A DNA stretch of 64,000 nucleotides from an uncultured virus (IMG/VR IMGVR_UViG_3300022187_000001). Lineage: Duplodnaviria; Heunggongvirae; Uroviricota; Caudoviricetes; Crassvirales. Under the pieces are notes generated by a model, which worked only from the letters and a program-made list of their open reading frames with translations, was not told the origin of the DNA and did not search any database. Location of the stretch: the IMG/VR virus record IMGVR_UViG_3300022187_000001, one strand, 5' to 3'. Below, piece after piece: positions 1,168 through 56,240 of the stretch (position 1 is its first letter; each line of letters opens with the position of its first letter). The position numbers were made by a program, and so were the translations under genes.

Positions 1168-3267
1168 TTAAACTCTGCGTATAGGCTTATGTCTTCTAAA
1201 AAACTTCTTTTCTGAAAAGTTTGCAGCCTCTTTTGTTTTTTCTTTTTGAGCCGCTAAAAGAGCAAGACCAGAAGAAATAGTGAGGTCGTATTTAGTTCTA
1301 TCTGTTATTTTAAATCCTATCCAGTCCTCTAGGGTTCTATTGAAATACATTTTTCCTGTATCTCCTGTTTCTCTGTTTATACCTACGTGGTTGTGTATAT
1401 AAGCTTCAATAGATTGAGCATGGGAATGAATAACGTCATTAGAGTTAGAAGGAACTCCTTTTGTCCGAACATTTGATGTAGACCCAGGAACTTTAAGGTG
1501 ATTAGGCCTATCTAAAAGATATCCGTCATAGCCCCTTTCTTCAAAGTACCTAGCTATTCCGTATTTATTATTCTCAATAAGAAGAGGGTATCCATAGAAA
1601 AAAGCACACATCAATACGTCTTCATAAAATATTTTAGCTAACGGAGGTCGAGACGCATACTCCACAACAAACATGTTTGAAGGATGCTCCATGTGAAATT
1701 TGTTGTACATATGGAGTGCACCTTTAGATCCTCTCCCGTCTACCGTAGCGTCTATATCGTAGCTGTCAACTCCACCACATCCGATAATGTCGTTCGGAGC
1801 TATTAATTTTCCATATGACTCCTTTTTAATGTTTCTTAGATGCTTAGGGGGTAGCCAAGAGACGTAAAATCTCCCAGTAGGGTCTGACCTAAAAAGCACC
1901 TCTGTGTCCTTTTGACCTTCTTTCCATACAAAATTTCCTTGTACAACTGGGTTAGGGAATAAGTTGTCGTTGTGATCTATCTGTTCATATATCTGACCGA
2001 TATTAAACAGACTTCCTTCTATGCTGTCTCTAAACGCCTCGTCTGTGGTAAAAGGAAATTGCCTTATAATCTCATTGAGTTCAGATGGCTGTTGCTTAAA
2101 AGCTTCTCTTTCATTCTTTAAATACGTCTTAGCCCCAATAGATATCCCCTCACCGTCTAACCCCTCTACAATATCAGGTGGGTCTTCTGACACTGGATTT
2201 CCATATTTATCAAAGAAGCCCTCTAATGATTCTTGAGCTGGAATAAAAAGCCTATACAGCCCAGATCTAGTCCTCCCATTCGAATTCCTCTCCATAGGAT
2301 TCGAGTCCTCCCATAGGTCCTTGTACTCCTTTCCACCTTTGTTCATTGGATTTACGGTGCTTCCTACGAGCGCCTTTCCGATTACTTTTCGCCCGACTAT
2401 CAAACATGTCCTCTGAATCCTCCAGGCGTCTCTTATGTCTGTAGGTTTTTCCCATTTTCCTGCTTCGTCTAAGTATAACATGTGAAGTTTTTCACCGTCA
2501 TACGCATTGTTAGTGGTGTTTTTCCAATTAATTACTGTGTTAAGAGCATCCCCGACCTGAGCTGTTTTGTTTTTCTTTGTAATCTTTTTTGAAGGCTCTC
2601 TAAAAGCCAGCTCCATTCTAGGGTTTGTGGTTCCATCTTGAATAGGTTTAAAAAAGAATGGATAATTTCTAAACATAGAAACAACCTTCTTCATAAATAT
2701 ATTTTCCTGTGCGTCTTTACCCGTCTTGCTTTGTATTCCAAGAAGTTTTTCTTTAACCTGAGAAGCCTCATCTACAATTACTGAAGAACATATGTTGGTG
2801 TATCCGCTTCTACGGCACTTAGTATATAGCTGTCCTAGACATCTTTGGTCCGCTTCACATGCCGCCAGGTGTATAAATATTTTTCTTTGAAAGTCAAGAA
2901 AATTAGGGTAACCTATGTCGAACTTGGTCCATTGTAGGGCCATGTAGTGTCTACCTGTAATGTACGTAGGCACACCGTTGTTGTAAAACCAAACGCCATC
3001 ACGTCTACGCCTAAACTCTTTTTCGATGTATGGACTGAAACGTTCACGGAATTCCCTTGGCATCTCCCCCCACTCATCCATAGACTTAATCCTACGCAGC
3101 TCGTTTGGCATAGGTATCCTTTCCCACATTTGCAGATCTTTGGTTTTTTCGCTAAAGAGGATCTCTTTTTTCGGCGGCTTCTTGGGAAGCATAATCTGTA
3201 GTCCACCGACATCAATGATTTCTCCTTCCGTACCGTTGGGATCAATTTTAATAACATCTTCATTCAT
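1168..3267 (-). CDS. terL: Terminase large subunit
   Basis: 699 aa; Walker A-like KCRRSGYT, Walker B LYLDEAGK, C-terminal nuclease motifs GVDSYD and YDLTISSG; adjacent to the portal. Confidence 0.93.
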   Translation of the reverse strand: MNEDVIKIDPNGTEGEIIDVGGLQIMLPKKPPKKEILFSEKTKDLQMWERIPMPNELRRIKSMDEWGEMPREFRERFSPYIEKEFRRRRDGVWFYNNGVPTYITGRHYMALQWTKFDIGYPNFLDFQRKIFIHLAACEADQRCLGQLYTKCRRSGYTNICSSVIVDEASQVKEKLLGIQSKTGKDAQENIFMKKVVSMFRNYPFFFKPIQDGTTNPRMELAFREPSKKITKKNKTAQVGDALNTVINWKNTTNNAYDGEKLHMLYLDEAGKWEKPTDIRDAWRIQRTCLIVGRKVIGKALVGSTVNPMNKGGKEYKDLWEDSNPMERNSNGRTRSGLYRLFIPAQESLEGFFDKYGNPVSEDPPDIVEGLDGEGISIGAKTYLKNEREAFKQQPSELNEIIRQFPFTTDEAFRDSIEGSLFNIGQIYEQIDHNDNLFPNPVVQGNFVWKEGQKDTEVLFRSDPTGRFYVSWLPPKHLRNIKKESYGKLIAPNDIIGCGGVDSYDIDATVDGRGSKGALHMYNKFHMEHPSNMFVVEYASRPPLAKIFYEDVLMCAFFYGYPLLIENNKYGIARYFEERGYDGYLLDRPNHLKVPGSTSNVRTKGVPSNSNDVIHSHAQSIEAYIHNHVGINRETGDTGKMYFNRTLEDWIGFKITDRTKYDLTISSGLALLAAQKEKTKEAANFSEKKFFRRHKPIRRV

Positions 3268-4003
3268 CGTACTTACCTTGAATCAACTCTTGCAAGCGAA
3301 CGTATTTTTTAATTAACTCTGATCTTTTTAGATACCTAGGGTAAATAGTTTTACTAATATAAGATTCGTAGCTATGTATATTAAGATCGTCTTTTATGTC
3401 AAGACAATCTTCTGGATCTTCTGATATCAAATCGATTATATCCCACCCCCACTTATTGGTCATCTCCTCTAAAATTTTTCCGTCAAAATCAAATGTTTGA
3501 TCCTTGTTGTAGACCTTAAATAAGTCTACTGAATTTTCTAGAGAATACGTAAGGAAGAATTGTCCAGAACTAACCAGATATTTTCCTCTTGTATTGAAAA
3601 CGCAAGTCTCATCTTTGTTGGGGTCAGTACTCATTACAACAAACTTATTTGACCCAAACGTAGCTGTCTTTTTTCCAGACAACTTCTCTTTACACTTGTC
3701 CCAATATTCCTGGCTATGAAGGTTGTTGCTGCCCATCCAACAGATATAGTCTTTTTGAGCGTGAATAGAAGTCAACCATGAAAACTGAAACTTATAAGAA
3801 AGAGGATCGTTAGGGTACATGTAGTGCTTTATTCCTCTGTCAGAACAAAACTCCTCTTGTCTTTTGTCGTCACCAATTACAATTCCAGTAGCTTCAAATC
3901 CATCTTTTTTAAAGTCTTCTATGACATCGCTCATGTGCGATATTGACATTCTTGTCAAAGAAAACCTTTTGTGATAGACCATAAAAAAACAAACACTCTT
4001 CAT
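3260..4003 (-). CDS. Glycosyltransferase-like (GT-A fold) protein
   Basis: GT2-like pattern (IVIGDD, NDPLSYK, DYICWMGSNNL); the usual acidic GSDD position reads GSNN. Confidence 0.5.
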   Translation of the reverse strand: MKSVCFFMVYHKRFSLTRMSISHMSDVIEDFKKDGFEATGIVIGDDKRQEEFCSDRGIKHYMYPNDPLSYKFQFSWLTSIHAQKDYICWMGSNNLHSQEYWDKCKEKLSGKKTATFGSNKFVVMSTDPNKDETCVFNTRGKYLVSSGQFFLTYSLENSVDLFKVYNKDQTFDFDGKILEEMTNKWGWDIIDLISEDPEDCLDIKDDLNIHSYESYISKTIYPRYLKRSELIKKYVRLQELIQGKYDE

Positions 4004-5271
4004 CGGATCAAAGAGACATGACCGTTTATAACATAGGACTCTCCATAGCCCTCACACTGAAGTCTATATACATAAACGTCAGAAGGTAAATAATATTCAT
4101 CCCCTCCGATCCATATGTCATCAGGATGAAAGCCCTCCCAAACAACCTCACCACTTCTAGAAAAAACTTTTAATATCCAAGATATCCAACAGCTGTCATC
4201 AGTATATGCACCCCAGTAGTCATTGACACCATCATTATCTGGTGTAAAAGAATTAGGTATGTATATATCACATCCTTCGTATGGGCTTATACAAGGGCTT
4301 CCTGTTTCGCAATCAACTTCTACCATATCGTACTCGTAAGAGTATTCAATTAAAGTGTCTGTTGTGTATACGTAGGTTGTGTCGTAAAAATACCAGTTTA
4401 TAGGGACAGTAATAGTATCAGGGGGTAGTTCAACGTAGTTGATGATAGTGTCGTATAGGATCAAAGGCTGGTACACGGTGTCTGGGGGGAGCTCTACATA
4501 AACTACCGTTGTATCATATTCTATAAGCGTTACTGTATCAGGCGGGAGCTCTACATAAATAGTGTCAATCACTACCTCTGGTATGGGTTCGCCGCAATCG
4601 CCAACCACAACCCAGTTGTCCTGAAAGCTATTGTCTTCGTACAGCCCAGTCCCCCAAGGGGTTCCATCTCCATTAACTCCAACCTCGGCCCAGCCCCCGT
4701 CAGAAGCGTACATAGTCTGCCCGTAACTGATCTGCCATATTACAGCCTGGATGCTATAACCCTCTGTATACCAGTATGTTATGACGTTCTCTAGGTTGCA
4801 GTACATCTGCCCCGCGAAAGGACCGTTTACGCAATCCGACTGGTATGAGTTGAATATAGGGAATGTAACGGTGTCCCCAGAATAGTACGGGGGTACAAGC
4901 GACTCATCATATAGGTTCGTCCAGTTAGTTGGCGACTCTGTAGTAGTAGCGCTGTAGATCCATCCAGGATGGTTACTGGTAGCGCTGAGAGGGAAGTCAA
5001 AAGACGGGAAGTCCCACCCTGTATTCATCGCATTGCAGTCCTCGTCTATTGCCTGAAATCCAAACTGCAGTTCGGAAACGCCGTCGGGCGCACCTGCACC
5101 ACCGCAATTTTCTGTGTTAAGGAATGCTACAGTGACAGATCCTTCTACAGGATCGAAATCCAACAACTCAAGATCGCATTGAGCGTGCATAGGAAATCCT
5201 TTCAGGATAACGCTTAGTATGAAAAGCAAGATCATGATAAAGAGCTTGCTTAAAATATAGTCTCTAGTCAT
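4000..5271 (-). CDS. Exported protein with a type-B T9SS C-terminal sorting domain (gliding-motility-associated CTD)
   Basis: N-terminal signal peptide ending MHA-Q; C-terminus IYIPNSFTPDNDGVNDYW...LKVFSRSGEVVW...W.G...DVYVYRL...GHVSLIR; internal YVELPPDT repeats. Confidence 0.85.
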   Translation of the reverse strand: MTRDYILSKLFIMILLFILSVILKGFPMHAQCDLELLDFDPVEGSVTVAFLNTENCGGAGAPDGVSELQFGFQAIDEDCNAMNTGWDFPSFDFPLSATSNHPGWIYSATTTESPTNWTNLYDESLVPPYYSGDTVTFPIFNSYQSDCVNGPFAGQMYCNLENVITYWYTEGYSIQAVIWQISYGQTMYASDGGWAEVGVNGDGTPWGTGLYEDNSFQDNWVVVGDCGEPIPEVVIDTIYVELPPDTVTLIEYDTTVVYVELPPDTVYQPLILYDTIINYVELPPDTITVPINWYFYDTTYVYTTDTLIEYSYEYDMVEVDCETGSPCISPYEGCDIYIPNSFTPDNDGVNDYWGAYTDDSCWISWILKVFSRSGEVVWEGFHPDDIWIGGDEYYLPSDVYVYRLQCEGYGESYVINGHVSLIR

Positions 5272-5399
5272 CTTCCCTGACCCCTATATGGTTTCTTGTA
5301 GTTCTTAGATCTTTTTTTATTTGATGTCTTAGTCTTACTATGAACACCAGGCCTTGAAACCTTATTTTTCTTTTCGTAAGTAGATTCTACTTTTGCCAT
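5268..5399 (-). CDS. Small basic protein, 43 aa (ends KPYRGQGR)
   Basis: Hand translation MAKVESTYEKKNKVSRPGVHSKTKTSNKKRSKNYKKPYRGQGR; ATGA overlap with the next gene; below the ORF-track cutoff. Confidence 0.75.
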   Translation of the reverse strand: MAKVESTYEKKNKVSRPGVHSKTKTSNKKRSKNYKKPYRGQGR

Positions 5400-5412: not shown

Positions 5413-5489
5413 TCGGCGAGGCGGGGATTGAACCCGCATGCAACCGATTACTCTTTCTACAAGGTATAAGCTTGAGGAGATACTCGCCG
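5413..5489 (-). tRNA. Non-canonical tRNA-like gene, anticodon UAU (Ile), no canonical D-arm
   Basis: Acceptor CGGCGAG/CTCGCCG+A; T-arm GCGGG-TTCAATC-CCCGC; anticodon loop CT-TAT-AC closed by CAAG/CTTG; extra arm GTAA-TCGG-TTGC. Confidence 0.7.
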
Positions 5490-5494
5490 AGTGT

Positions 5495-5734
5495 TTATTT
5501 TCTCTTTGAGCCCTTTATTCGACTTTTTTCTGCTATGCCTCTATTTTTAGATGCAGGCATAATTACTCTTGCTCCATTAGAGGCGTGATGAATGTCCTTG
5601 CCGTCTCCCTTTTTTACTTTTCCTTCTTTTTCAGCGGACCTACGGTCTCTATTCCTCTTAGCGCGGAGTTTTTTCTGCTCATCAGAAGACTGGAACTTAT
5701 CGTATTCTTTTCTATAATTTCTTTTTACTCTCAT
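5495..5734 (-). CDS. Small basic HNH-like protein
   Basis: KKGDGKDIHH...SKNRG pattern typical of minimal phage HNH proteins near packaging genes. Confidence 0.55.
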   Translation of the reverse strand: MRVKRNYRKEYDKFQSSDEQKKLRAKRNRDRRSAEKEGKVKKGDGKDIHHASNGARVIMPASKNRGIAEKSRIKGSKRK

Positions 5735-8293: not shown

Positions 8294-8545
8294 TTAAGAC
8301 CTGCAGGAAGACGAGGTCCTACTTCCACGGCCACCACCTCTTGCAAAGTTTATACCCCCTGATTTTGTTTTACCAAAACCCTTTCCGCTTTGACCACTTG
8401 CGGTTTTTGGCTTTTTAGTCTTTTCTTTTTTAGGGGTCTTCATCGTGCCCTCACCCTGCATTTTAGCAGGTGGAAGAAACCTTGGGCTCTGGGGGGCTAC
8501 ATTTTTACGCTTACCGCGTGTTATAGGTTTTTTTGTAATCCTCAT
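8294..8545 (-). CDS. Small basic protein
   Basis: K/R/G-rich, 83 aa, coupled operon. Confidence 0.65.
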   Translation of the reverse strand: MRITKKPITRGKRKNVAPQSPRFLPPAKMQGEGTMKTPKKEKTKKPKTASGQSGKGFGKTKSGGINFARGGGRGSRTSSSCRS

Positions 8546-8940
8546 TAATACGGTCCTAATCCGAGCATTCTTGCAAAACGCTCTATGTTTGTTAGTCTAT
8601 GTGGTCCAGGCGCCCCAGATACTCCAGGTACATATCTTGGCTGACGACTTGTAGCAGAAACAGCAGAGCCCGCTAAACCTGGTATAATAGCTTTAGCAGC
8701 TTTTCCTGTTCTACTTTTTGCTCTGTTGTTTAAATATCCTTGAACGAGATCTGTAAGAGCGTTCATTTTATTGGCGTTCATTTCGCCCTGCATTATGCTT
8801 GGCTCCTTCATGACAGAGGTTATTTCCTGCTTGACCTCTTCTGGAGCCTCCCTAAAAGCCTTTGTAAAAAGTTTATTGAACCTTTTATCTTTCATCTTAC
8901 CCGCATCACGGGCTAAAGGATGCTTTTTGGGCTTCATCAA
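8545..8940 (-). CDS. Hypothetical basic protein
   Basis: 131 aa with overlapping stop/start codons. Confidence 0.65.
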   Translation of the reverse strand: MMKPKKHPLARDAGKMKDKRFNKLFTKAFREAPEEVKQEITSVMKEPSIMQGEMNANKMNALTDLVQGYLNNRAKSRTGKAAKAIIPGLAGSAVSATSRQPRYVPGVSGAPGPHRLTNIERFARMLGLGPY

Positions 8941-9245
8941 CGGTTTCTTTTTTTCAATCCCGTTGATGTATACCCGCTTTTCTTGTAGTCTTCAAGCCTT
9001 CGCATAGACATTCCTGCCTTGCCCGCTTTTTTAACGCCCTTTGACTGCATTCGGTCTGCTTTTTTCTGGTTGCCTTTTTCCATTGCGTCAAGTCCTTTCC
9101 CATACTTTTTAAGGGCCTTTCTAATTTTCCTGTTAACCCTTCCTCCTTGATCGTAAGACTTGTCTTTGCCGCAGTTACACTTGCCTGCGGCCATTTTGCC
9201 GCAAGAACACATCTTACCGCCTTTTTTATAACTTGTTGTTTTCAT
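8937..9245 (-). CDS. Small basic protein with two YxxGG motifs and a CxC...CxC cluster
   Basis: YKKGGK, YDQGGR, CSC-GKMAAGK-CNC. Confidence 0.7.
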   Translation of the reverse strand: MKTTSYKKGGKMCSCGKMAAGKCNCGKDKSYDQGGRVNRKIRKALKKYGKGLDAMEKGNQKKADRMQSKGVKKAGKAGMSMRRLEDYKKSGYTSTGLKKRNR

Positions 9246-11911: not shown

Positions 11912-12294
11912 TATGTTTCTTTTTTGCAAATATATGTGAGAAATATATAGGGTGGGGATTATATATGTTATGCGCCGCCGCGCCCGCGTACCCGAAACGC
12001 ATCCGCAAACCCCGCCCCCCTAACGCATGCGCCGTTTGCCGAAAACATTTGAGCATCTATCTCCCTGAGTTACAGCAGGTTAGCTCCGATTTAGTCGCTG
12101 TGTTTCGCACCGATGGATTGACGTAACACCTTGGGAATCAGGGACAAACACCCTACCCTCCTTGCGTCCGCATGCATATGACCCCTGCATGGTGGGTGCA
12201 CTACACACGTAATGAGGCGCATGGCTTGCGCATCACACGAGGCAGTTTTGTGTTTGTATTTCGCCATTAATTGCAACACAAACGTCAATCTATT

Positions 12295-12322
12295 TTAATA
12301 CTAAAAGGTATTTTAGTATTAA
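12295..12322. repeat. Perfect 12-bp AT-rich inverted repeat
   Basis: TTAATACTAAAA-GGTA-TTTTAGTATTAA. Confidence 0.9.
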
Positions 12323-12481
12323 TTAAACTACGTAATTATCAACACAATCTGCGTCGCCTCGTGCGTATGCGCTGCCCTGTGTGCGTGGACGCCATGATGC
12401 GCACATGACGCCAATCTTCGGCGCAGGACTACCGTGTGCATTATGCACGGGGTAGACGCAGGAAGATTCTGACCAAGAAAA

Positions 12482-12514
12482 TTTGGTAATCTCGAATCGA
12501 TGAACGTATCTTTG
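12482..12514 (+). promoter_or_regulatory. Early promoter 1
   Basis: TTTG-N21-TATCTTTG (Bacteroidota -33/-7 consensus). Confidence 0.8.
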
Positions 12515-12558
12515 TGGTCGCTTAGCAACTCAGCTCAGTGACAAACACACAACGCCAC

Positions 12559-13065
12559 ATGGCACACAAGAACACCCCCGCCTCCCCTGAGGCCATCACC
12601 GCTCTGCTCAAGGACACCAAGTCCGCCGTCAACCGCGCCAAGTACACACCCACGAAGAGCCGTAAGGCTGAGGCTGTGGCTTTGCTCAACTCCGTCATCT
12701 CCGCCATCGAGGCGCTCACCGAGGTGCCTGAGCCTGCACCCAAGAAGCCGAAGGCGGCGGGCACGAAGGGTGGCAACACCAAGACAGGTCAGAAGCTCCA
12801 ACGCAAGGCACGGCCCGCACGGAGCAAAGCTCAGCAGGAGTTGGACAAGGCTGATGCCGCCTCATACAAGCGTGATGACGAGCACATGGAAAAGCTCGTC
12901 AACGCCGCTGTCATTGACGCTCTCAAGCGGTTGAACACCACAGCACCTGTGTCCAAGCCTACCAAGCGTAAGGCGCAGGTTCTCAGCCATGCTGAGATTG
13001 AAGCCTTGAAGGCAGAGGCCTTGGAGTCCACTGACATGCACATCTCATACGAGGATTGCCTCTAA
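12559..13065 (+). CDS. First early gene; A/K-rich hypothetical protein
   Basis: ATG after the promoter; strong bias to C/G-ending codons. Confidence 0.8.
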   Translation: MAHKNTPASPEAITALLKDTKSAVNRAKYTPTKSRKAEAVALLNSVISAIEALTEVPEPAPKKPKAAGTKGGNTKTGQKLQRKARPARSKAQQELDKADAASYKRDDEHMEKLVNAAVIDALKRLNTTAPVSKPTKRKAQVLSHAEIEALKAEALESTDMHISYEDCL

Positions 13066-13078
13066 GCAATCCCGTGTA

Positions 13079-13121
13079 GACACACATGGTGCTTGGGGGG
13101 GTTCGATTCCCCCCTGTGTCT
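13079..13121 (+). ncRNA. Minimal tRNA-like element (acceptor-like stem plus T-arm)
   Basis: AGACACA-catggtgcttg-GGGGGG-TTCGATT-CCCCCC-TGTGTCT. Confidence 0.5.
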
Positions 13122-13160
13122 CTGTTTTTCAATCGTTTAAATTTCAATTCATACGCAACT

Positions 13161-13403
13161 ATGCGCAACACACGACCATCCTTGGCGGAAATCCGCCGCA
13201 TCAACGAGCGGCGCGACCGCCTGTCCACCTACCAAGAAAACATTGCCATTGCGTCCATGTTCGCCATGGTCATTGGCTTCACGCTCCTCATGATGGGGGC
13301 CATGGTCCAAGCGGACCTTCTCACATGGTGTGGGGCTGGGTGCATGATCGCCTCACCCGCTCTTGCCTTGGTCTCCCTCATCATCGACACCTTCAACAAC
13401 TGA
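13161..13403 (+). CDS. Small membrane protein with two TM segments
   Basis: Two hydrophobic segments; start moved to MRNTRP. Confidence 0.75.
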   Translation: MRNTRPSLAEIRRINERRDRLSTYQENIAIASMFAMVIGFTLLMMGAMVQADLLTWCGAGCMIASPALALVSLIIDTFNN

Positions 13404-13409
13404 AAACCC

Positions 13410-13679
13410 ATGGAACGCACATATGACCTGCGCAACCGCTGGAGCGCAACCATCACGGCATTTTGCCAATACACCAACGCTGAATTGGAGCGGTTCCGCT
13501 TCACGGCTGACGTACTCACGAGCTTCGTCAATTTCGTTAAAGCCAACGACTTCGTATTCACGGACGAAGAGCTTCGCCTGTGGTGCGCCGACCACGACTA
13601 CAACTGCGCACCGCTCATCCGTCAGTGGATGCGCCGTGTACCTGAGTTCCGCGTTGTCACACCTAACGTAATTGCCTGA
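13410..13679 (+). CDS. Early hypothetical protein
   Basis: 89 aa, early-type codon bias. Confidence 0.7.
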   Translation: MERTYDLRNRWSATITAFCQYTNAELERFRFTADVLTSFVNFVKANDFVFTDEELRLWCADHDYNCAPLIRQWMRRVPEFRVVTPNVIA

Positions 13680-13681
13680 AA

Positions 13682-13897
13682 ATGAGACACAGAGAAAATC
13701 CAACACCTCGCCGCATGAGTGTGAGACCTGAAGCAAAACCAACACATCGCGTCATCGGCGTAGCCCCTGGGCATAGCGGGTGGCGTGGACGCACGGTCGA
13801 ATTGGGCCTGTGCTACAACGAGCGACACGCAGCAAGGTGCGCGTCCTTCTGGTATTGGCACTACGATGACATCAAGGTCATCAAGCTAACAGACTGA
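13682..13897 (+). CDS. Early hypothetical protein
   Basis: 71 aa, directly follows the previous stop. Confidence 0.6.
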   Translation: MRHRENPTPRRMSVRPEAKPTHRVIGVAPGHSGWRGRTVELGLCYNERHAARCASFWYWHYDDIKVIKLTD

Positions 13898-13920
13898 GAG
13901 ACAGCAAGTTAGAAAAAAGA

Positions 13921-13953
13921 TTTGGAAATATGGGAATCGTCGTCGTATCTTTG
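13921..13953 (+). promoter_or_regulatory. Early promoter 2
   Basis: TTTG-N21-TATCTTTG, leader ending TCAACGCTATG. Confidence 0.8.
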
Positions 13954-13986
13954 CGGTCGGCAATTCAGCCAACAACCTTCAACGCT

Positions 13987-14190
13987 ATGACCCACACGAA
14001 GCACGACTTCACGGAGCACACCAACGCTGACCTTGAGCGAATCTTGGACTTCTCCACCGCTATGCTTGAGACCCACAAGGAGGCCATCAAGCACGAGCCT
14101 GACCCCGAACAACGCACCGCATTCGCTGAGCACATCGCCTCCCTCGAAGACGGCATTGCTCAAGTCAAAGCAGAACTGCAAACCCGCTAA
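13987..14190 (+). CDS. Small helical early protein
   Basis: Starts MTHTKH after the shared leader. Confidence 0.75.
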   Translation: MTHTKHDFTEHTNADLERILDFSTAMLETHKEAIKHEPDPEQRTAFAEHIASLEDGIAQVKAELQTR

Positions 14191-14201
14191 TCCCCACACC
14201 C

Positions 14202-14717
14202 ATGAACACAATCGAATACCCACACTTCATGCTTGCCGCTGAATCCTTCGGCAGGACCCTTGCCGATGGCGGCGACAGCATCCTCACACAACCAGGCGCG
14301 AAAGGAATCACCTACAAATCAGGTACGTTGAACTACAACCAACTGCCAACTGACCCATTCCGCCCCGTATGGGGGTATGCGGTTGGTGGTTTGGCTCCTG
14401 AGGTTCGTATATCCATGGTCCATCCCGCAGGTGTGGTTGGTCCCCTTGAGTACGCCAAGCACCCACAGGTCTTGTTCAAGGAATTCCGCAAGGCTTTCGA
14501 GCAGACGTGGAACAGTGCCTTCCGTGTCTCCACCTTCATGAAGACGTGCGTAGGCACATGGGTTGATGGGGAGGACATCGTGTTCGACGTCTCCCAAATC
14601 ATGCAAGACGAATCCACTGCCATGCGCATTGCACAGGATCGCAATGAGAAAGCCATCTACGACATCACGAACGGCAAAGAAATCGCCAACCCACAATACA
14701 AGACTGTTACCCTTTAG
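14202..14717 (+). CDS. Early protein with a GTW-D...FDVS...A..A...KAIYD motif
   Basis: 171 aa; conserved-looking C-terminal alpha/beta motif. Confidence 0.75.
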   Translation: MNTIEYPHFMLAAESFGRTLADGGDSILTQPGAKGITYKSGTLNYNQLPTDPFRPVWGYAVGGLAPEVRISMVHPAGVVGPLEYAKHPQVLFKEFRKAFEQTWNSAFRVSTFMKTCVGTWVDGEDIVFDVSQIMQDESTAMRIAQDRNEKAIYDITNGKEIANPQYKTVTL

Positions 14718-14763
14718 GGTAGAAAGAAAAATTTGCAGAATCCAAACCAACGGCGTATCTTTG
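14708..14763 (+). promoter_or_regulatory. Early promoter 3 with upstream palindrome
   Basis: TACCCT-TT-AGGGTA, N10, TTTG-N20-TATCTTTG. Confidence 0.8.
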
Positions 14764-14787
14764 CCGACGAATTCAAACTTCAACGCT

Positions 14788-14994
14788 ATGAATACAAACA
14801 CACGACACGAGCAGGCTCTCAATAACTGCCGCAAGAAGTTCCAAGGTCTCGACGAGATTGACCGCATGAACGAGGCAAACAAGTTCATCCACACCATGAG
14901 CAAGCGTGGTATCCCCGTGAACCACTGCATCGGATTCCTCAAGGAGGCAGGGGTCATGAGCGACACCGAACTCATCCACTCACTCACATACTAA
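14788..14994 (+). CDS. Early hypothetical protein
   Basis: Starts MNTNTR after the TCAACGCT leader. Confidence 0.7.
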   Translation: MNTNTRHEQALNNCRKKFQGLDEIDRMNEANKFIHTMSKRGIPVNHCIGFLKEAGVMSDTELIHSLTY

Positions 14995-15005
14995 TACACA
15001 CAGCC

Positions 15006-15278
15006 ATGAACAGAAAGCTAACCGCATACCTCGATGCCGTCGAGGGCTACACCAACTCCATCACCCGTGCCATCCTTAACAACGAGGTAAACTACGTCAT
15101 CGCCATGGAGGACGACGAAGGACCCTTCAATCGATTCATCCCGCTCCCCTCCCCACAGACGGCAGGGACGGAGACACAGAAACAAGCCTATGCCCGCATG
15201 AAAGCACAAGAGATTGTGGAGGACATGAAGATATGGAACCCACACCTCGACTACGACACCATCCTCCAAAACCTCTGA
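15006..15278 (+). CDS. Early hypothetical protein
   Basis: AC-rich leader, early codon bias. Confidence 0.7.
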   Translation: MNRKLTAYLDAVEGYTNSITRAILNNEVNYVIAMEDDEGPFNRFIPLPSPQTAGTETQKQAYARMKAQEIVEDMKIWNPHLDYDTILQNL

Positions 15279-15289
15279 CACACACACTC

Positions 15290-15451
15290 ATGACGAAGAA
15301 CGATTTCCTCGGTATCTGTTGGGAATGCGAAGTTGACCCCAACCTCGTGGTCGAGGTCCCCGCAGTGGTGGACCTGCTCAAGGCAGACAAGGGCAACCCA
15401 CGCATTGAGAACCAACTCCTCTTGCACAACATCATCAACGCAAACCTCTAA
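15290..15451 (+). CDS. Early hypothetical protein
   Basis: Starts MTKNDF after ACACACACTC. Confidence 0.65.
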   Translation: MTKNDFLGICWECEVDPNLVVEVPAVVDLLKADKGNPRIENQLLLHNIINANL

Positions 15452-15456
15452 CACAC

Positions 15457-15729
15457 ATGAACAGCTACGAAGACTTCAAGCGTGACCTCGCGGTCCGCCT
15501 CCTCCGCAAGATTGACGGACAGACAGACCTCATCACCCGCATCGGCCTCGTCATGGAAGCTCTCGACGAGGCACTCCCAAAGGACGACAGCGTCAATCGT
15601 GGACACACAGACCTCATCGATCTGGCGTGTGTGTACAAGGTCGACGAATGCCCCAACTGCGGCAAGAAAGACGTCGAGTACAGCGATGTCTACGAATTCT
15701 GCAACGAGTGCGGATACACCTTCAACTGA
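15457..15729 (+). CDS. Early protein with a C-terminal zinc ribbon
   Basis: CPNCG...FCNECGY. Confidence 0.75.
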   Translation: MNSYEDFKRDLAVRLLRKIDGQTDLITRIGLVMEALDEALPKDDSVNRGHTDLIDLACVYKVDECPNCGKKDVEYSDVYEFCNECGYTFN

Positions 15730-15736
15730 CACAGAC

Positions 15737-15886
15737 ATGAACGACACATACAAGTTGGTCCTGTGGCCTGAGTCACAGACATACATGGATGAGCCGTGGT
15801 TCGACGACCACGCCATCCTTGCTGACGCTGAATCCATCGGAGAAGGTCAAGCCTACTTCATCCCAATCGAATACACACAGACATGA
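15737..15886 (+). CDS. Small early protein (LVLWPESQ...WF motif)
   Basis: Starts MNDTYK after ACACAGAC. Confidence 0.7.
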   Translation: MNDTYKLVLWPESQTYMDEPWFDDHAILADAESIGEGQAYFIPIEYTQT

Positions 15887-16218
15887 CGAAAGCAGAACTC
15901 ATCAAGGCTCTCGACAGCCTCCCCAATGACGCCCACATCAGCGTGTGGCGCGACCACCGCATCTACAACAACCTTGAAGTGGATGTCTTCACGGACGGCG
16001 AAGACGACACCATCGTCGAACTCGCACACATCAACATCTACGACCACCACAAGGAGCCGCAGATGACGCATGACGAAATCCAAAAGGTGCAACAGGCACT
16101 CATGTTGGCGGATATGTTCTTCATCGCCACCCCCATCGCCACCATCGAGAAGATGGGTAACCCGCTCGGCAAGGTGCTGCGGGATGCAATAAACATCACA
16201 CTCGAATACACAGACTGA
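15883..16218 (+). CDS. Early hypothetical protein
   Basis: MTKAELIKALDSLP N-terminus; ATGA overlap. Confidence 0.7.
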   Translation: MTKAELIKALDSLPNDAHISVWRDHRIYNNLEVDVFTDGEDDTIVELAHINIYDHHKEPQMTHDEIQKVQQALMLADMFFIATPIATIEKMGNPLGKVLRDAINITLEYTD

Positions 16219-16225
16219 CGAAACT

Positions 16226-16283
16226 TACCCCTAAAGGGGTAGCAAAATAAATTTGCAGAATCCAAACCATCATCGTAAATTTG
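16226..16283 (+). promoter_or_regulatory. Early promoter 4 with upstream palindrome
   Basis: TACCCCT-AA-AGGGGTA, N10, TTTG-N20-TAAATTTG. Confidence 0.8.
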
Positions 16284-16305
16284 CACTCCAATTCAACTCA
16301 ACGCT

Positions 16306-16716
16306 ATGAACACAGACACCATCGTGGTAGACGGCATCCCTTTCGAGGTGGAGGTCGAACGAGGCTACGGCTTCACCACCATCCGAGTCCCTGACACCAA
16401 CATGACCACGGGATGCATGGAAGACGACACACAAGCATTCCGTAAGATTCACGAACTGCTGACCGAGTCGGTTGCAAAAGTACCTGTACTACGTGAAGAG
16501 GCTCACACAATCCAAGACATGAGCGAACTACAAGCCGCTCATGCCATCATTGAGGACATCAACATCATCATCAACGAGATGCTCCCCGAAATCAAATCTG
16601 CCATCTTGTATGACGAGGTATCCTTCGGTACTCTCTTCGACAACATCGAGGAGGCGGCGCACCGAATCATAGACTTGAACCACGACGAAGATCGTCGTCT
16701 CAACCCCAACAAATGA
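16306..16716 (+). CDS. Acidic early hypothetical protein
   Basis: 136 aa after the shared leader. Confidence 0.75.
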   Translation: MNTDTIVVDGIPFEVEVERGYGFTTIRVPDTNMTTGCMEDDTQAFRKIHELLTESVAKVPVLREEAHTIQDMSELQAAHAIIEDINIIINEMLPEIKSAILYDEVSFGTLFDNIEEAAHRIIDLNHDEDRRLNPNK

Positions 16717-16856
16717 AGAGAGATAAACTCCTTCGGGAGCTGAGGGCTATCGGTTCTGACCTCGCCGACAAATCCCGTAAGCCGTCAGAGTTTCCTGACG
16801 CCAAGTATGAATACGAAGCCATACGCTACGTCATCAAGAACATCGACAAACTCTAA
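16713..16856 (+). CDS. Small early protein, 47 aa
   Basis: Hand translation MKRDKLLRELRAIGSDL...IKNIDKL; ATGA overlap. Confidence 0.65.
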   Translation: MKRDKLLRELRAIGSDLADKSRKPSEFPDAKYEYEAIRYVIKNIDKL

Positions 16857-16867
16857 CACCCATACCC

Positions 16868-17566
16868 ATGAACACTAAACTTCGCCTCGCCCCCCACTAC
16901 TTCGTCATCGACTCCATCGGAGGTATGAACGAGGGCTACTCAGACACCACCTGCCGCCGCATCGAGGATGTGATTGCATCCGAACACGCCAAGGCCATGG
17001 TCGAGGAGTACATCGACCAGTGGACACACGAACGCTTGGAGTATTACGCTGAGCGAATCGAAAACTACTCCCTGCGTACAGAGGTTGACCTCGTTCGCTA
17101 CGACATCGAGGAGTGTCCGCATGGTGGGTGGGTCAAGCTTACCCCTGAGTTCAGCGACAGCCTCGACCCCGAAGACATCGACGATTGGGGCTTCCACACC
17201 CTCTTCATCCAAGTGTATGACGGCATCATGCTCGGTGACGGCGTGGTTGTGTACGACCAAATGGATGATATGGTGACCACCATCACACACAAGCACACCG
17301 CCATGCGTATCGCAGAGGAGACCATCTCCATCGGTGTGGAGCGCATGAAGTACGGTATGCACCATGACCAGCAACGAGGGTACGACCTCAAGTACATCAT
17401 GAACAACCTCTTCTTCGCTTACGACACACTGGCTGAGGTGGTGCGTGACCTTGAGTACCCACAGGATGTAATGGTCGACATCGACGACACCTGCACCCAC
17501 TACTTCCCCATCCAAGCCATGAAGCAGATGGAATACTACAAAGACAGCCGAATCACGACACGCTAA
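16868..17566 (+). CDS. Acidic early hypothetical protein
   Basis: 232 aa, D/E-rich, early codon bias. Confidence 0.8.
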   Translation: MNTKLRLAPHYFVIDSIGGMNEGYSDTTCRRIEDVIASEHAKAMVEEYIDQWTHERLEYYAERIENYSLRTEVDLVRYDIEECPHGGWVKLTPEFSDSLDPEDIDDWGFHTLFIQVYDGIMLGDGVVVYDQMDDMVTTITHKHTAMRIAEETISIGVERMKYGMHHDQQRGYDLKYIMNNLFFAYDTLAEVVRDLEYPQDVMVDIDDTCTHYFPIQAMKQMEYYKDSRITTR

Positions 17567-17579
17567 TACTTGCACAACA

Positions 17580-17828
17580 ATGAAAACATACACACAAGCA
17601 GACTACAAGCGGATGCACCAAGGCATCGTCGAAGACATGATTGACACCTGCATCAGCAAGTGGCACGACCAAGAGTGTGACCCGCTCGAAGCGCGTGTCT
17701 ACCGCAACCTCGCCTCTATGTTTGAGCACCTGCGTGACGCAAAGGATAACGTAGAGGACATCAACATATGGGTCAGTGCCGCCAATGAGGAGGCCGCCTA
17801 CAATACCCTTAAAGGGGTAGCAAAATAA
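17580..17828 (+). CDS. Early hypothetical protein
   Basis: 82 aa ORF. Confidence 0.7.
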   Translation: MKTYTQADYKRMHQGIVEDMIDTCISKWHDQECDPLEARVYRNLASMFEHLRDAKDNVEDINIWVSAANEEAAYNTLKGVAK

Positions 17829-17861
17829 ATTTGCATAAACAGAATTATCACAGTAAATTTG
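17804..17861 (+). promoter_or_regulatory. Early promoter 5 with upstream palindrome
   Basis: TACCCTT-AA-AGGGGTA, N10, TTTG-N20-TAAATTTG. Confidence 0.8.
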
Positions 17862-17891
17862 CAGTCCAATTCAATTCAACGCTATTAACAA

Positions 17892-18461
17892 ATGCTAAAC
17901 AATAACACCAACACCCGCGCCTTCGCCGAATCTATGGGTCATACCATCGCTTTTGGTCGGAGCATCGTAACCTGTGACGCACTCCTCAACCATCAGTCCT
18001 ACGGGTTCTACTACCACGCCACAGACGGAGATGCTATCGTGGTCTCCCCTACCGACCCTAAGGGGGCGTACTCATACTGGGCAGACTACCTGCGAGAAGC
18101 ACAGGCTCTTGCGGAGAAATACGACCAAGACCCCGCTACATACGGGGTGCTAATGACCTTCAACTATGGACGTTCATGTATCTACATGAATCTTGTCCGT
18201 GTCGAGTACATGAAGGAACGCGCCTTGGACATGGCAGAGAACGACAGCGTTCAGTGCCCGTCCGTCATCTACGGCTTCTGTCGTAACGAAGAGATCGAGC
18301 GTATCACACTCGACAGCGAGGGTCGATCCACATACCCACAGGATGAGGCGGGACGTGCTGAAGCGGAAGCGGGGTACAACCGCGAAGTGACAGAGGATGC
18401 ACTGAAGCTGTTCCAAGACCTCGGCTTGAAGGAAGGGGATGAGTTAGAAGAATGGGTGTGA
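17892..18461 (+). CDS. Early hypothetical protein, possible distant paralog of 14202..14717
   Basis: IYMNLVRV...ERALDMA...IYG...NEEI. Confidence 0.7.
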   Translation: MLNNNTNTRAFAESMGHTIAFGRSIVTCDALLNHQSYGFYYHATDGDAIVVSPTDPKGAYSYWADYLREAQALAEKYDQDPATYGVLMTFNYGRSCIYMNLVRVEYMKERALDMAENDSVQCPSVIYGFCRNEEIERITLDSEGRSTYPQDEAGRAEAEAGYNREVTEDALKLFQDLGLKEGDELEEWV

Positions 18462-18545
18462 GTTTAGAGGCGGCTGACATACCCGCATCAGGAGGGGTCC
18501 TGTGAAAGTATGTAAGGGGAGGTTTTGTGTTCTCCTCCCCGCCAT

Positions 18546-18621
18546 GCGCCTGTAGCTCAGTGGTTAGAGCATCCGACTCATAATCGGCAGGTCGTAGGTT
18601 CAAGTCCTACCAGGCGCACCA
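18546..18621 (+). tRNA. tRNA with CAU anticodon, probably tRNA-Ile2 (lysidine type)
   Basis: Canonical 76-nt cloverleaf with CCA; loop CT-CAT-AA; C4-G69 and C5-G68 pairs as in TilS substrates. Confidence 0.9.
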
Positions 18622-18699
18622 AAATGGATAGGATGGAGTTGCTGCCCTGCCTATCAAGTGCTCCCACCCGAAACAGCATAGGGTGGTGGTGCGGTACTC

Positions 18700-18772
18700 G
18701 CCCACGTAGCTCAGGGGATAGAGCAACTGCCTTCTAAGCAGTCGGTCGCAGGTTCGATTCCTGCCGTGGGTA
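18700..18772 (+). tRNA. tRNA-Arg(UCU)
   Basis: Canonical cloverleaf; ACTGC-CTTCTAA-GCAGT; CCA not encoded. Confidence 0.93.
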
Positions 18773-18795
18773 CAAACATTCAAACACTCACAAAC

Positions 18796-19068
18796 ATGAA
18801 CTACTACGTAACAACCACAACAGACCTGCTCACTCCTGAGCAAAGGAAGCAGTTTAATGACATCATCGATGTCTGCCACGACAGCGACTTCGTGAGCCGC
18901 CTATGGGACTGCCTTGACCACAAGGTCACCGACACCGTCGCCGAGTACGGCACTGAGATGGAGAACTTCAAGGGTGACCTTGCAGATTTCTGCTTTGGGT
19001 GGGTCATGGGCGTGAAGATGATGGGCATCGAGGCAAAAATAGCGCATCATAACCTCAAGGACAAGTAA
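18796..19068 (+). CDS. Hypothetical protein
   Basis: Starts MNYYVT after an AC-rich leader. Confidence 0.7.
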   Translation: MNYYVTTTTDLLTPEQRKQFNDIIDVCHDSDFVSRLWDCLDHKVTDTVAEYGTEMENFKGDLADFCFGWVMGVKMMGIEAKIAHHNLKDK

Positions 19069-19080
19069 ACAAAAACAAAC

Positions 19081-19329
19081 ATGAGCACATTTAAACAAGA
19101 GCGCATCGACGGCGTAGTCCGCGAGATTGAGCGCAAGAGCCTGCAAGACATTGCGTTTATTATACTGAGCGAACGCTTCGAGAAGAAGATTTCGCTATAC
19201 GAAGCCGAATGGCTGGACGCCCTCGCCGATGCCCTGCGCGATGGAGACAGCTTTAACGAGTCGGAGTTGATGCAAGAGCTCTACGGAAACCCAAAGAAAG
19301 AACTCATCAAACGATACATGAACCAATGA
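19081..19329 (+). CDS. Hypothetical protein
   Basis: 82 aa, A-rich leader. Confidence 0.7.
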   Translation: MSTFKQERIDGVVREIERKSLQDIAFIILSERFEKKISLYEAEWLDALADALRDGDSFNESELMQELYGNPKKELIKRYMNQ

Positions 19330-19556
19330 AAGTATACCTTATACACCACCCAAATGGGGACATCTACCACAGAACAGATGAGAACATCATGGATGACATA
19401 CACGACATGATGGAGGCGGGCGAGTGCTCGATCGAGTGTTGGCGCAATGATGTGCACCTCGAATCTCATAGCTCCCCATCTTGGGGGTTGACGAGCAATG
19501 CCGACATAAACGACTGGTTAGAAACACAACAACTAACAAAATCACTATCATCATGA
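19326..19556 (+). CDS. Hypothetical protein
   Basis: ATGA overlap. Confidence 0.65.
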   Translation: MKVYLIHHPNGDIYHRTDENIMDDIHDMMEAGECSIECWRNDVHLESHSSPSWGLTSNADINDWLETQQLTKSLSS

Positions 19557-19666
19557 GCAACAATCAACACACATTATTGTCCATTGCGGTGTATACGTTA
19601 CTCGTTACGGCGGCATGGGTCATAGCATATGGATTCGCACAACTACTCAATAACCTCACACAATGA
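19553..19666 (+). CDS. Single-TM peptide, 37 aa
   Basis: MSNNQHTLLSIAVYTLLVTAAWVIAYGFAQLL; ATGA overlaps at both ends. Confidence 0.6.
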   Translation: MSNNQHTLLSIAVYTLLVTAAWVIAYGFAQLLNNLTQ

Positions 19667-20151
19667 CTGAAGAACAATTGAACTGCATCGGCAACCCGCT
19701 ACCAAACGAAACGTTCACGGCGTCACAGGCTATCCGAGCGGTCAACCGCTTGCTCTGGTCTAATGACGTAGAAGACGACGACCATGCCGAGGCAATGGTG
19801 ATAAAGGCGTTCCTAGTGGGCGTACTCCCAAACATTCCTGCGCCCGCCTTTTTGTCGAAGACAATCCCCGTTATGAATACCACGATCGAAGGCGCACAGA
19901 AGCGCATCGTCAAGGCCATCGAAGATTACGCTGACCGATGCAAATTTATCGGCGACCCGTGCGAGACAAACCCTGACCTCGAATACATCGGGGTCTTCCT
20001 CGACTCCGTGGAGGACGAGATGGCGGCAATCTCCAGCGCACACAACTCCCTGCATGACAGGTACGTCCAAGCCCGCGCCGAGATTGACATCCTCAAAGCA
20101 ACCATCGCGTCACTTGAACGCCAACTATTAGCCGCACATGATAACCGATAA
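19663..20151 (+). CDS. Hypothetical protein with a C-terminal coiled coil
   Basis: 162 aa. Confidence 0.7.
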   Translation: MTEEQLNCIGNPLPNETFTASQAIRAVNRLLWSNDVEDDDHAEAMVIKAFLVGVLPNIPAPAFLSKTIPVMNTTIEGAQKRIVKAIEDYADRCKFIGDPCETNPDLEYIGVFLDSVEDEMAAISSAHNSLHDRYVQARAEIDILKATIASLERQLLAAHDNR

Positions 20152-35806: not shown

Positions 35807-36255
35807 TTCTTTACTTTTTCTATTGTCCTACCAGCAAAATATGCCCCAAATACTGTAAGCATTAAAACTTCTAGCAAATTTATGTAATTTTCTGGGGGCA
35901 TAAAATGGACATCCAATCCATCCCATACGGTTAGGATCATGTAGAAAACAGTCAAGGAGACTAGTGTAATCGGTCTTATATACTTTGCGATCTTTACATC
36001 AGACTTGGCATCCGCCTCCCATCTTCTAGTAACCTGCTCTTGCTCGTTCTCTCTTTCTTCAATTAGAATTTTTTGAAATTCTATCTTTTGTTCTGGAGTA
36101 AGGTTTGGTTCGGTGTCTACTATTCTTTTTACAATACCTAGTACGCCGCTATCTGGCAGGTAATTACCCACCTGATCTGCTACTTGAGGTAGTTTATCAG
36201 ATAGCCATTTACCAACCTTGGTGTCCTTAATTCTTTTCCCCTCTTTGTCTTTCAT
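35803..36255 (-). CDS. Holin-like protein (3TM holin type)
   Basis: RWEAD...IRPITL, TM segments, GAYFAGRTIEK. Confidence 0.7.
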   Translation of the reverse strand: MKDKEGKRIKDTKVGKWLSDKLPQVADQVGNYLPDSGVLGIVKRIVDTEPNLTPEQKIEFQKILIEERENEQEQVTRRWEADAKSDVKIAKYIRPITLVSLTVFYMILTVWDGLDVHFMPPENYINLLEVLMLTVFGAYFAGRTIEKVKK

Positions 36256-56191: not shown

Positions 56192-56204
56192 AAAGCAAAT
56201 ATAC

Positions 56205-56240
56205 AAAAAGAAAGAGGGGCTATTGGCCCCTCTCTCTTTG
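56205..56240 (-). terminator. Intrinsic terminator ending the capsid operon
   Basis: Minus strand AGAGGGGCC-AAT-AGCCCCTCT-TTCTTTTTG, running into a TATATTTGC promoter. Confidence 0.8.

Follow-up and report, generated by a model that had tools for sequence, protein, structure and literature searches.

A predicted type B T9SS cargo protein with a sequon-rich stalk encoded next to the terminase region of uncultured phages related to Flavobacteriaceae phages

Introduction

Why would a lytic-looking phage carry, tightly packed among its late genes, a gene for a protein that has the build of a secreted surface protein? This question is raised by the open reading frame (ORF) 4000..5271 on the minus strand of a stretch of 64,000 nucleotides from an uncultured virus (IMG/VR record IMGVR_UViG_3300022187_000001; Caudoviricetes, Crassvirales), which is hereafter called the window. 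This single ORF, whose stop codon occupies 4000-4002, encodes a protein of 423 amino acids (aa), for which an earlier note, made from the letters of the sequence, had proposed export through the host type IX secretion system (T9SS) and display on the infected cell. From our point of view, it is probable that the infected cell would export this cargo protein via Sec, glycosylate its stalk, pass it through the T9SS onto a host shuttle of the PorP/SprF type and thereby display a binding domain on its surface. The proposal rests on four independent kinds of sequence evidence, namely a signal peptide, a pattern of Cys residues, a dense set of glycosylation sequons and a C-terminal sorting domain.

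Results and Discussion

Architecture, presequence and evidence for export

The translation and composition of the ORF bear out the proposed layout of signal peptide, acidic domain, stalk and C-terminal domain (CTD) (Table 1). The family was compared in two alignments, one of 92 members and one of 34 sequences whose N-terminal domains (N-domains) are 60-95% identical to that of the window protein; structural statements refer to the AlphaFold model of the cluster representative, which differs from the window protein by 1 residue.

Residues 1-30 read MTRDYILSK, LFIMILLFILSVIL and KGFPMHA, followed by QC, and thus form a basic and then hydrophobic presequence (isoelectric point (pI) 9.7, grand average of hydropathy 1.36), of which residues 2-24 are modelled as a helix. 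In the aligned homologues the presequence is 4-50 residues long (median 19) and has little shared sequence beyond its hydrophobicity; of the 82 presequences that reach 15 aa or more, 77 include at least 10 uncharged residues in a row. In 91 of the 92 aligned members, it ends with A (54 members), G (23) or S (14) directly before an invariant QCD. Such a hypervariable presequence in front of an invariant (A/G/S)-QCD represents the alignment signature of a cleaved signal peptide, and the comparison thereby backs the signal peptide that the earlier note had listed. Gln at position +1 is typical of Bacteroidota substrates of signal peptidase I. We also considered a lipoprotein and rejected it, as the Gln always precedes the conserved Cys, which does not fit a lipobox, and as this Cys is one of four invariant ones.

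These four invariant Cys of the N-domain were identified in the 34-sequence alignment, in which a fifth and a sixth Cys are either both present or both absent, and some members carry an extra adjacent Cys pair. The pattern fits disulfide bonds that would be formed outside the cytoplasm.

An acidic N-terminal domain seen in viral sequence only

The N-domain starts with QCDLE, has a pI of about 4 and contains 29 Asp and Glu, 6 Cys and 8 Trp, and no Lys or Arg. It is the most conserved part of the protein, with 67 invariant columns among the 34 sequences (including the 4 Cys and 7 Trp), and the ratio of nonsynonymous to synonymous substitution rates (dN/dS) is 0.03-0.11 where the synonymous sites, measured as the proportion of synonymous differences (pS), are not saturated. 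The model shows a sandwich core with helical and loop insertions. A structure search of the Atlas with this domain returned only a viral cluster with CHU_C, at a template modelling score (TM) of 0.64, and a profile search of the sequences in the PDB gave only a chance match (E 0.19). When its profile was compared with 1.84 billion representatives, 23 clusters only were found; 9 of the 12 that were scanned also end in CHU_C, and at least one of the 3 without it (P0138) ends abruptly. A second copy was not found in the window, where the N-domain and CTD profiles match the cargo gene alone among the 427 open frames that reach 50 aa or more, and the N-domain is therefore not detectably related to the tail or fibre proteins of this phage.

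As a separate observation, the absence of Lys and Arg over about 200 aa is a property of the family, found in 34 of 34 and 91 of 92 members of the two alignments; the stalk is likewise free of both residues in 84 of 92 members, and the CTD retains about five.

A stalk loaded with glycosylation sequons

According to a 2025 review, the sequence D-S/T-A/L/V/I/M/T is the O-glycosylation motif of Bacteroidota and is active only in non-cytoplasmic proteins, its sites are usually occupied nearly fully, engineered motifs become glycosylated, and the glycan is assembled on undecaprenyl phosphate by cytoplasmic glycosyltransferases (PMC12871550). The sequon named in the earlier note agrees with this description, and the three YVELPPDT repeats (residues 239, 258 and 279) and eight D-T-(I/V/T/L) triplets listed there are present exactly as given: DTI236, DTV245, DTT253, DTV264, DTI274, DTI285, DTT297 and DTL305, that is, eight motifs in a stalk of 97 aa. 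A ninth sequon, DTV133, lies within the N-domain.

The number of sequons is far from what composition would give, as 300 shuffles of the stalk residues yielded a mean of 0.79 and a maximum of 4, and all 92 members exceed each of the 300 shuffles. In these members, stalk lengths range from 81 to 198 aa, with 6-20 sequons in each; the density is 9.26 sequons per 100 aa, whereas N-domain and CTD have 0.49 and 0.09, respectively. The stalks use D-T 1002 times and D-S 7 times, and the third position is A, I, L, V, M or T in 973 of the 1009 D-(S/T)-x triplets, such residues making up about half of the stalk. As controls, 32 other proteins of the window contain 24 sequons in 15,096 aa (0.16 per 100 aa), and two cellular CHU_C adhesins have 0.66 and 0.99 per 100 aa; in neither control do more than 2 fall within 97 residues. 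The predicted local distance difference test (pLDDT) score is below 50 over residues 234-327, so that the model offers no confident fold for the stalk, and no tandem repeat is detectable in it at the DNA level.

A type B sorting domain that would depend on a host shuttle

The Pfam family CHU_C (PF13585) matches residues 337-408 with an E value of 7.7e-10 and 39.2 bits, above its gathering score of 27, and homologues of the cargo protein score 44-64 bits with the same model. The profile comparison suggested in the earlier note hence gives a significant hit by the curated threshold of Pfam. The NCBIfam model TIGR04131 is matched at E <= 0.01 by 92 of the 92 aligned members (best 2.3e-14), and in the window protein its alignment ends at residue 423 of 423, i.e. 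at the extreme C-terminus. No type A model is among the Pfam and NCBIfam matches of the protein.

The CTD is modelled with a pLDDT of 80-96. Its model superposes on the CTD of NucA in the T9SS translocon (8glk_D) with Z 8.6 and a root-mean-square deviation of 2.1 over 73 residues, and on the CTDs of PorZ, PorU, RemA and RgpB with Z 7.0-8.0 overall (PorZ 8.0, PorU 7.5, and the CTD chains of 8gl8 and of 8gl6, the RemA-CTD complex, 7.5 and 7.0).

Type B cargos are reported to need PorP/SprF-like shuttles (PMC12618676, PMC9143113), and in Flavobacterium johnsoniae 3 of 12 type B cargos are described as orphans that use an unlinked shuttle (PMC12618676). We found no match to PorP_SprF (PF11751) among the ORFs of the window that were scanned, nor in any of 5 records of related viruses (completeness 94-100% for three of them), and the same search recovered 11 and 6 copies in two Flavobacteriia genomes that served as a positive control. 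A cognate shuttle was thus not found in the phage, the adjacency of cargo and shuttle being frequent and not obligatory. As no shuttle gene was found in the phage, a host shuttle is presumed, and the cargo would be of the orphan type, like the three of F. johnsoniae.

A large family at late sites of several phage lineages

A search of 5.8 billion protein clusters yielded 336 clusters at E <= 0.001; PF13585 is found on every one of the best 120, and in most the alignment spans 93-100% of the query, with 44-71% identity. In IMG/VR, the gene occurs at 52 distinct loci. Cellular genomes were scanned twice, in 185,579 species genomes and seeded by a few peptide patterns. With the full-length alignment, none of 198 pattern matches was confirmed. 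With stalk and CTD, 64 loci were found that match essentially in the CTD part only, at 27-44% identity and best in uncultured Flavobacteriales, on adhesins with PKD repeats; the closest two (44% and 40%) belong to proteins of at least 1419 aa (the frame is open at its 5' end) and of 1054 aa. Neither of the two pattern-seeded scans returned a cellular N-domain or stalk. Since the scans rest on few peptide patterns, absence from cells is likely and not proven, and as far as these searches reach, this is a large family seen only in viral sequence.

The homologues recur upstream of the gene for the large terminase subunit (terL), as the earlier note had suggested checking. In 25 of the 52 loci the cargo gene lies directly upstream of terL, as in the window, in the order p111, sometimes p79, cargo gene, variable slot, terL and portal, and terL is 72-100% identical to that of this phage. 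In 7 loci, with terL 46-49% identical, the gene is found 6-7 kilobases (kb) downstream of terL and portal; in these loci and in a further 11, homologues of the structural genes s270 (56258-57070) and s250 (55454-56206) of the window flank the gene or stand next to it. A longer version is present in 5 loci, which have a terL-like match of 20% identity on the other strand, and 4 loci are short, with no visible context. The cargo gene therefore occupies different late or structural intergenic sites in at least 3 phage lineages. In the related phages Panino and elemoE, a GroES-like gene stands directly before terL with nothing between.

Some distant members (P0122, P0124, P0132, P0134, P0137 and P0140) have extra modules inserted between N-domain and stalk, which include repeats of the Cys-bounded motif G-C-T-D-x-x-A-x-N-Y-D-x-x-A-x-x-D-D-G-S-C, and P0124 has two N-domain-like regions.

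Exchange of the distal domain

Across loci, the identities of N-domain and CTD to the window protein are uncoupled. The locus L011 combines an N-domain of 95% identity (pS 0.35) with a CTD of 39% and a terL of 77% (pS 0.86), and L009 is similar, with 92% (pS 0.52), 40% and 74% (pS 0.85), respectively. L020, a close relative by its backbone (terL 86%, pS 0.73), has an N-domain of 56% (pS 0.82) and a CTD of 69%. The trees of the two domains disagree as well. In approximately unbiased (AU) tests, in which each group was named from the tree of the other domain, the grouping of the CTD tree is rejected by the N-domain data (p 2e-64) and that of the N-domain tree by the CTD data (p 3.7e-4). A terL tree of 24 rows calls for at least 7 changes of N-domain type and at least 4 of CTD type, and the N-domain type of the window is present in three separate terL clades.

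By these comparisons, the N-domain has evolved along a different path from the secretion tag. The uncoupled identities and conflicting trees, taken together with the low dN/dS, indicate that the distal domain has been exchanged between phages across the stalk and then strongly constrained. This is the behaviour expected of modules that meet a variable partner.

A proposed route and possible roles

In the route that we propose, the phage would make the cargo late in infection, the gene being co-oriented and tightly packed with terminase and structural genes. Sec would export the protein, and signal peptidase I would cut after MHA, leaving Gln as the new N-terminus. The N-domain would fold and become disulfide-bonded in the periplasm. 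The stalk would receive glycans at about eight D-T-(I/V/L/T) sites from the general O-glycosylation system of the host. By means of its type B CTD, the folded protein would then pass the SprA translocon and be handed to a PorP/SprF-type shuttle, which should be that of the host because the phage carries none. The outcome would be an acidic, Trp-rich, lectin- or adhesin-like domain that is held off the outer membrane by a glycosylated stalk.

The most likely role, judged from this architecture, would be to alter what the surface of the infected cell binds. SprB and RemA, which are T9SS-secreted adhesins, are thought to be phage receptors, and mutants in T9SS and gliding are described as the usual route to phage resistance in Flavobacterium (PMC9804748). 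Our first choice is that the protein interferes with those T9SS-delivered adhesins to which phages bind as receptors, either by masking them or by competing for shuttles. This would exclude superinfecting phages or spare the progeny from adsorbing to debris. The position in a late operon fits protection of the progeny better than an early exclusion of superinfection, a judgement made from gene position. Adhesion of the infected cell to particles or other cells is a possible second choice.

Alternative explanations and points that weigh against display

Three other explanations can be imagined. It is unlikely, in our view, that the protein is secreted via Sec and T9SS but then released to the medium, where it would act at a distance, for example through binding to polysaccharide or neighbour cells or by covering the receptors of uninfected cells. 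The signal peptide, CTD and sequons would serve this explanation just as well, superfolder green fluorescent protein fused to type B CTDs was recovered from F. johnsoniae supernatants (PMC12618676), and no anchor or shuttle gene was found on the phage. Native type B cargos, however, are reported to stay on the surface bound to PorP-like proteins (PMC9143113). A long stalk, moreover, makes most sense on a tethered protein. We regard it as quite improbable that the gene product is a virion or assembly protein, with a CHU_C-like domain that is merely an immunoglobulin (Ig)-like module, a hydrophobic N-terminus that is a membrane anchor or an artefact, and no passage through the T9SS. Ig-like domains are common on virions, the CTD fold matches many unrelated Ig-like domains at similar Z, and in the 18 loci of the second group the gene is found between homologues of s270 and s250. 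Nonetheless, the hypervariable presequence in front of the invariant (A/G/S)-QCD marks a cleaved signal peptide, Cys pairs that are invariant or co-vary are in keeping with an oxidising compartment, an excess of sequons would be meaningless in the cytoplasm, the type B model is matched in full length by all 92 members, right at their C-terminal ends, and the protein belongs to no structural family of PHROG.

Very improbable indeed is a passenger gene (moron) captured from a host adhesin gene and without benefit to the phage. In favour of it, the cargo gene occurs in variable genome slots beside other accessory genes, and its CTD is 27-44% identical to those of cellular Flavobacteriales adhesins with PKD repeats. 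Against this, N-domain and stalk were not found in the two pattern-seeded scans of 185,579 species genomes, the N-domain is confined to 23 clusters in a set of 1.84 billion representatives, with CHU_C on 9 of the 12 scanned, the gene has been kept in three phage lineages whose terL is only 20-48% identical to that of this phage, and purifying selection on it is strong.

Display on the infected cell, which we continue to prefer, has to face a number of observations that weigh against it. The signal peptide, although supported, is assigned from the family comparison. TIGR04131, which the earlier note had named together with CHU_C, aligns with its positions 2-85 of 85 on residues 337-423 of the window protein and scores 30.3 bits, under the curated cut-off of 35, so that of the match claimed for this protein the PF13585 part stands and the TIGR04131 part remains below threshold. 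The top structural match of the CTD (Z 9.1) is a domain of a streptococcal protease; the fold is a common Ig-like sandwich, and the fold match therefore supports passage through the T9SS without proving it and would be weak alone. No solved type B CTD was found among the PDB structure and sequence matches. As for the N-domain, Foldseek gave no match in the PDB at E <= 0.001, and the best fold matches (Z 6.1) are generic fibronectin type III or Ig sandwiches that cover about half of the domain and are uninformative. With generic matches alone, no function can be read from its fold, and it is the acidic, Trp-rich composition, the sole basis for this assignment, that suggests a carbohydrate- or surface-binding module of the lectin or adhesin kind. 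In the stalk, even the members furthest from the window protein retain the full unit D-T-x-Y-V-E-L-P-P-D-T; as the whole peptide unit and not D-T-x alone is conserved, more than the bare sequon is under selection, and in addition to bearing glycans the stalk may serve a structural purpose. The location of the 18 loci of the second group inside a structural module could instead mean a virion protein. Lastly, tblastn found no match in the 50,697 phage records of INPHARED, and CHU_C is present in none of 3 related records (two from cultured phages, the third an uncultured complete genome); as the cultured relatives lack the gene, no laboratory system is at hand.

Relation to known systems

Phage-encoded T9SS cargo as such is already known. 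Bellas et al. (2020) described three type A T9SS cargo genes on 'Cryophage' and called this a unique occurrence (PMC7468147). According to the cited text, these are likewise genes of a Bacteroidota phage that carry a T9SS sorting domain, belong to the flexible genes and are proposed to hijack host secretion, but their type A domains are borne by enzymes and modules of the endoglucanase, GH39 and PA14 kinds (PMC7468147). The window protein, in contrast, has a type B domain, an N-domain seen in viruses only and a sequon-laden stalk, and it belongs to a large family over several phage lineages. De Jonge et al. (2019) reported proteins with T9SS sorting domains on contigs of uncultured Bacteroidota phages, also encoded upstream of the head section (PMC6949934). 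In the account given there, however, these are proteins of gut phages, encoded next to crAss-BACON ORFs and with BACON-type carbohydrate-binding repeats, which are discussed as possible tail fibres (PMC6949934).

The cellular type B cargos SprB and Fjoh_3952, the orphans Fjoh_1123/1720/4934, and PG1035 share with the phage protein a Sec signal peptide and a C-terminal TIGR04131/CHU_C domain (PMC12618676, PMC9143113). As far as these sources describe them, they depend on PorP/SprF-like shuttles and anchors, and the phage gene resembles the three F. johnsoniae orphans in having no adjacent shuttle. These cargos of F. johnsoniae and Porphyromonas gingivalis are nevertheless cellular genes and mostly very large repetitive adhesins, whereas the phage protein is short and has a disordered D-T-x stalk in place of Ig-type repeats.

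With regard to role, an analogue would be found in Llp of the Escherichia coli phage T5, a lipoprotein exported to the outer membrane by the Lol pathway, which blocks the phage's own receptor against superinfection and the loss of progeny on debris. The analogy would be functional and in role only, as Llp and the cargo protein share no sequence or domain. In the literature that was searched in full text, outside of which most subscription journals fall, neither a type B family in phages nor this architecture is described, and we hence take a type B family of this build, as defined by sequence, to be new.

One could speculate, with considerable doubt, that a widespread group of phages of marine Flavobacteria remodels the infected surface with a modular glycoprotein that combines a host-matched type B tag for loading onto the shuttles of the gliding/T9SS machinery, a mucin-like stalk glycosylated by the host and a K/R-free binding domain that is traded between phages in the manner of tail fibres, that is, with an 'anti-receptor' or adhesin cassette on the host side of the envelope. 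A conserved phage gene whose product is tied into the T9SS would represent a new phage-host interface in the Bacteroidota, whose members rank among the main degraders of marine organic matter, and a surface rewritten from inside via three host systems in series, namely Sec, O-glycosylation and T9SS. That phages trade the distal domain in a mosaic fashion points to a function in an arms race. The family could also be of use as a tool, because a cargo of 423 aa is a compact natural type B substrate for dissecting how shuttles recognise cargos, and 6-20 clustered sequons offer a natural test bed for the still uncharacterised O-oligosaccharyltransferase.

The slot between cargo gene and terL

The gene that follows the cargo gene in the window encodes a protein of 247 aa (Table 1) without a Pfam, NCBIfam or PHROG match, and a profile built from 40 sequences matched no PDB sequence. 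A structure search of the Atlas, the single source of this assignment, suggests a glycosyltransferase (GT) fold of the GT-A (GT2-like) kind, as it aligns at TM 0.72-0.76 with clusters in which PF00535 (GT2) makes up the aligned portion. None of its 54 homologues has a Pfam family, and the family shows an invariant S-N-N around residues 92-94, where we would expect a DxD motif.

Table 1. Parts of the cargo protein and genes around it in the window.
Feature	Coordinates	Strand	Remarks
Signal peptide (predicted)	5182..5271	-	Residues 1-30; predicted signal-peptidase I site MHA/Q (cut between A and Q), Gln at +1
N-terminal globular domain	4576..5181	-	Residues 31-232; acidic, Cys/Trp-rich, K/R-free, beta-sandwich core
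Stalk	4285..4575	-	Residues 233-329; predicted disordered or extended
C-terminal type B T9SS sorting domain (CHU_C)	4003..4284	-	Residues 330-423, extreme C-terminus
247-aa neighbour, putative GT-A (GT2-like) glycosyltransferase fold	3260..4003	-	Start overlaps the stop of the cargo gene, end overlaps the start of terL
43-aa very basic ORF	5268..5399	-	pI 10.7; its stop overlaps the ATG of the cargo gene
Terminase large subunit (terL)	1168..3267	-	phrog_6681, E 4.6e-203; conserved downstream anchor of the locus

The gene for this neighbour adjoins the cargo gene only in the window and in the loci L004-L008, L018 and L044. When the slot between cargo gene and terL was compared in 17 loci, 10 had nothing there. 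The 247-aa gene occupies it in L006 and L018, as it does in L007 and L008, a 2-oxoglutarate (2OG)-Fe(II) oxygenase (PF13640) in L017 (6019-6636), and a 2OG-Fe(II) oxygenase together with a Capsule_synth (PF05159) protein in L050 (1005-2743); a four-Cys protein of 59 aa is encoded in the slot of L009, L011, L045 and L050. It is suggestive that genes for glycan and oxygenase functions recur next to a protein so rich in sequons. The link of the slot to this protein is circumstantial, since genes of these kinds are frequent among accessory genes. The 247-aa protein is a possible glycan-tailoring partner, as far as its modelled fold can tell, and in some phages the glycan of the stalk may be re-tailored by an adjacent glycosyltransferase or oxygenase of the phage.

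Phage setting and further observations

The window belongs to a lytic-looking podophage related to Flavobacteriaceae phages. Relatives of its terL were found in 89 phage records, all at less than 60% identity, which by organism name are Flavobacterium (68), Cellulophaga (15), Tenacibaculum (2), Maribacter (1), 'uncultured' (2) and Caudoviricetes (1). Downstream of the cargo gene, the portal gene (phrog_6547) accompanies terL; it is cut by the window, and a small part of the genome is therefore unseen, related viral records rated 94-100% complete being 58-68 kb long. The window also carries virion and structural proteins, primase/helicase, ribonucleotide reductase, an M15 endolysin and a holin-like gene. 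No family of integrases or recombinases was met among the ORFs scanned, in line with the earlier remark that none was visible. A spanin-like role of the cargo protein in lysis was considered and set aside, as the holin-like and endolysin genes are located elsewhere and nothing ties them to the cargo gene.

Some further features of the genome may be recorded. Between the gene for a 79-aa protein and the cargo gene lies a tRNA-like element (5413..5489, minus strand) that scores 29.0 bits with the tRNA model of Rfam, equal to the gathering score (E 0.0047); it is not called by ARAGORN and has an 8-bp acceptor-like stem, a good T-arm and an odd middle. This arm of the genome contains small, extremely basic ORFs on the minus strand (5268..5399, 5495..5734 and 8294..9245), one of which (79 aa) matches phrog_4590 and phrog_6437, both families of unknown function. 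The region 12000..20000 has a GC content of 0.51-0.54, compared with 0.38-0.46 elsewhere in the window, frames open on both strands, almost no Pfam or PHROG matches, and genes for tRNA-Met and tRNA-Arg at 18546-18773. A protein of 2685 aa (36227..44284, minus strand) contains an LPD38 domain and matches phrog_14770 and phrog_616 with its C-terminal 900 aa, and a protein of 367 aa (47144..48247, minus strand) has a sub-threshold match to the C-terminal domain of the crAss muzzle protein (25.4 bits versus 27).

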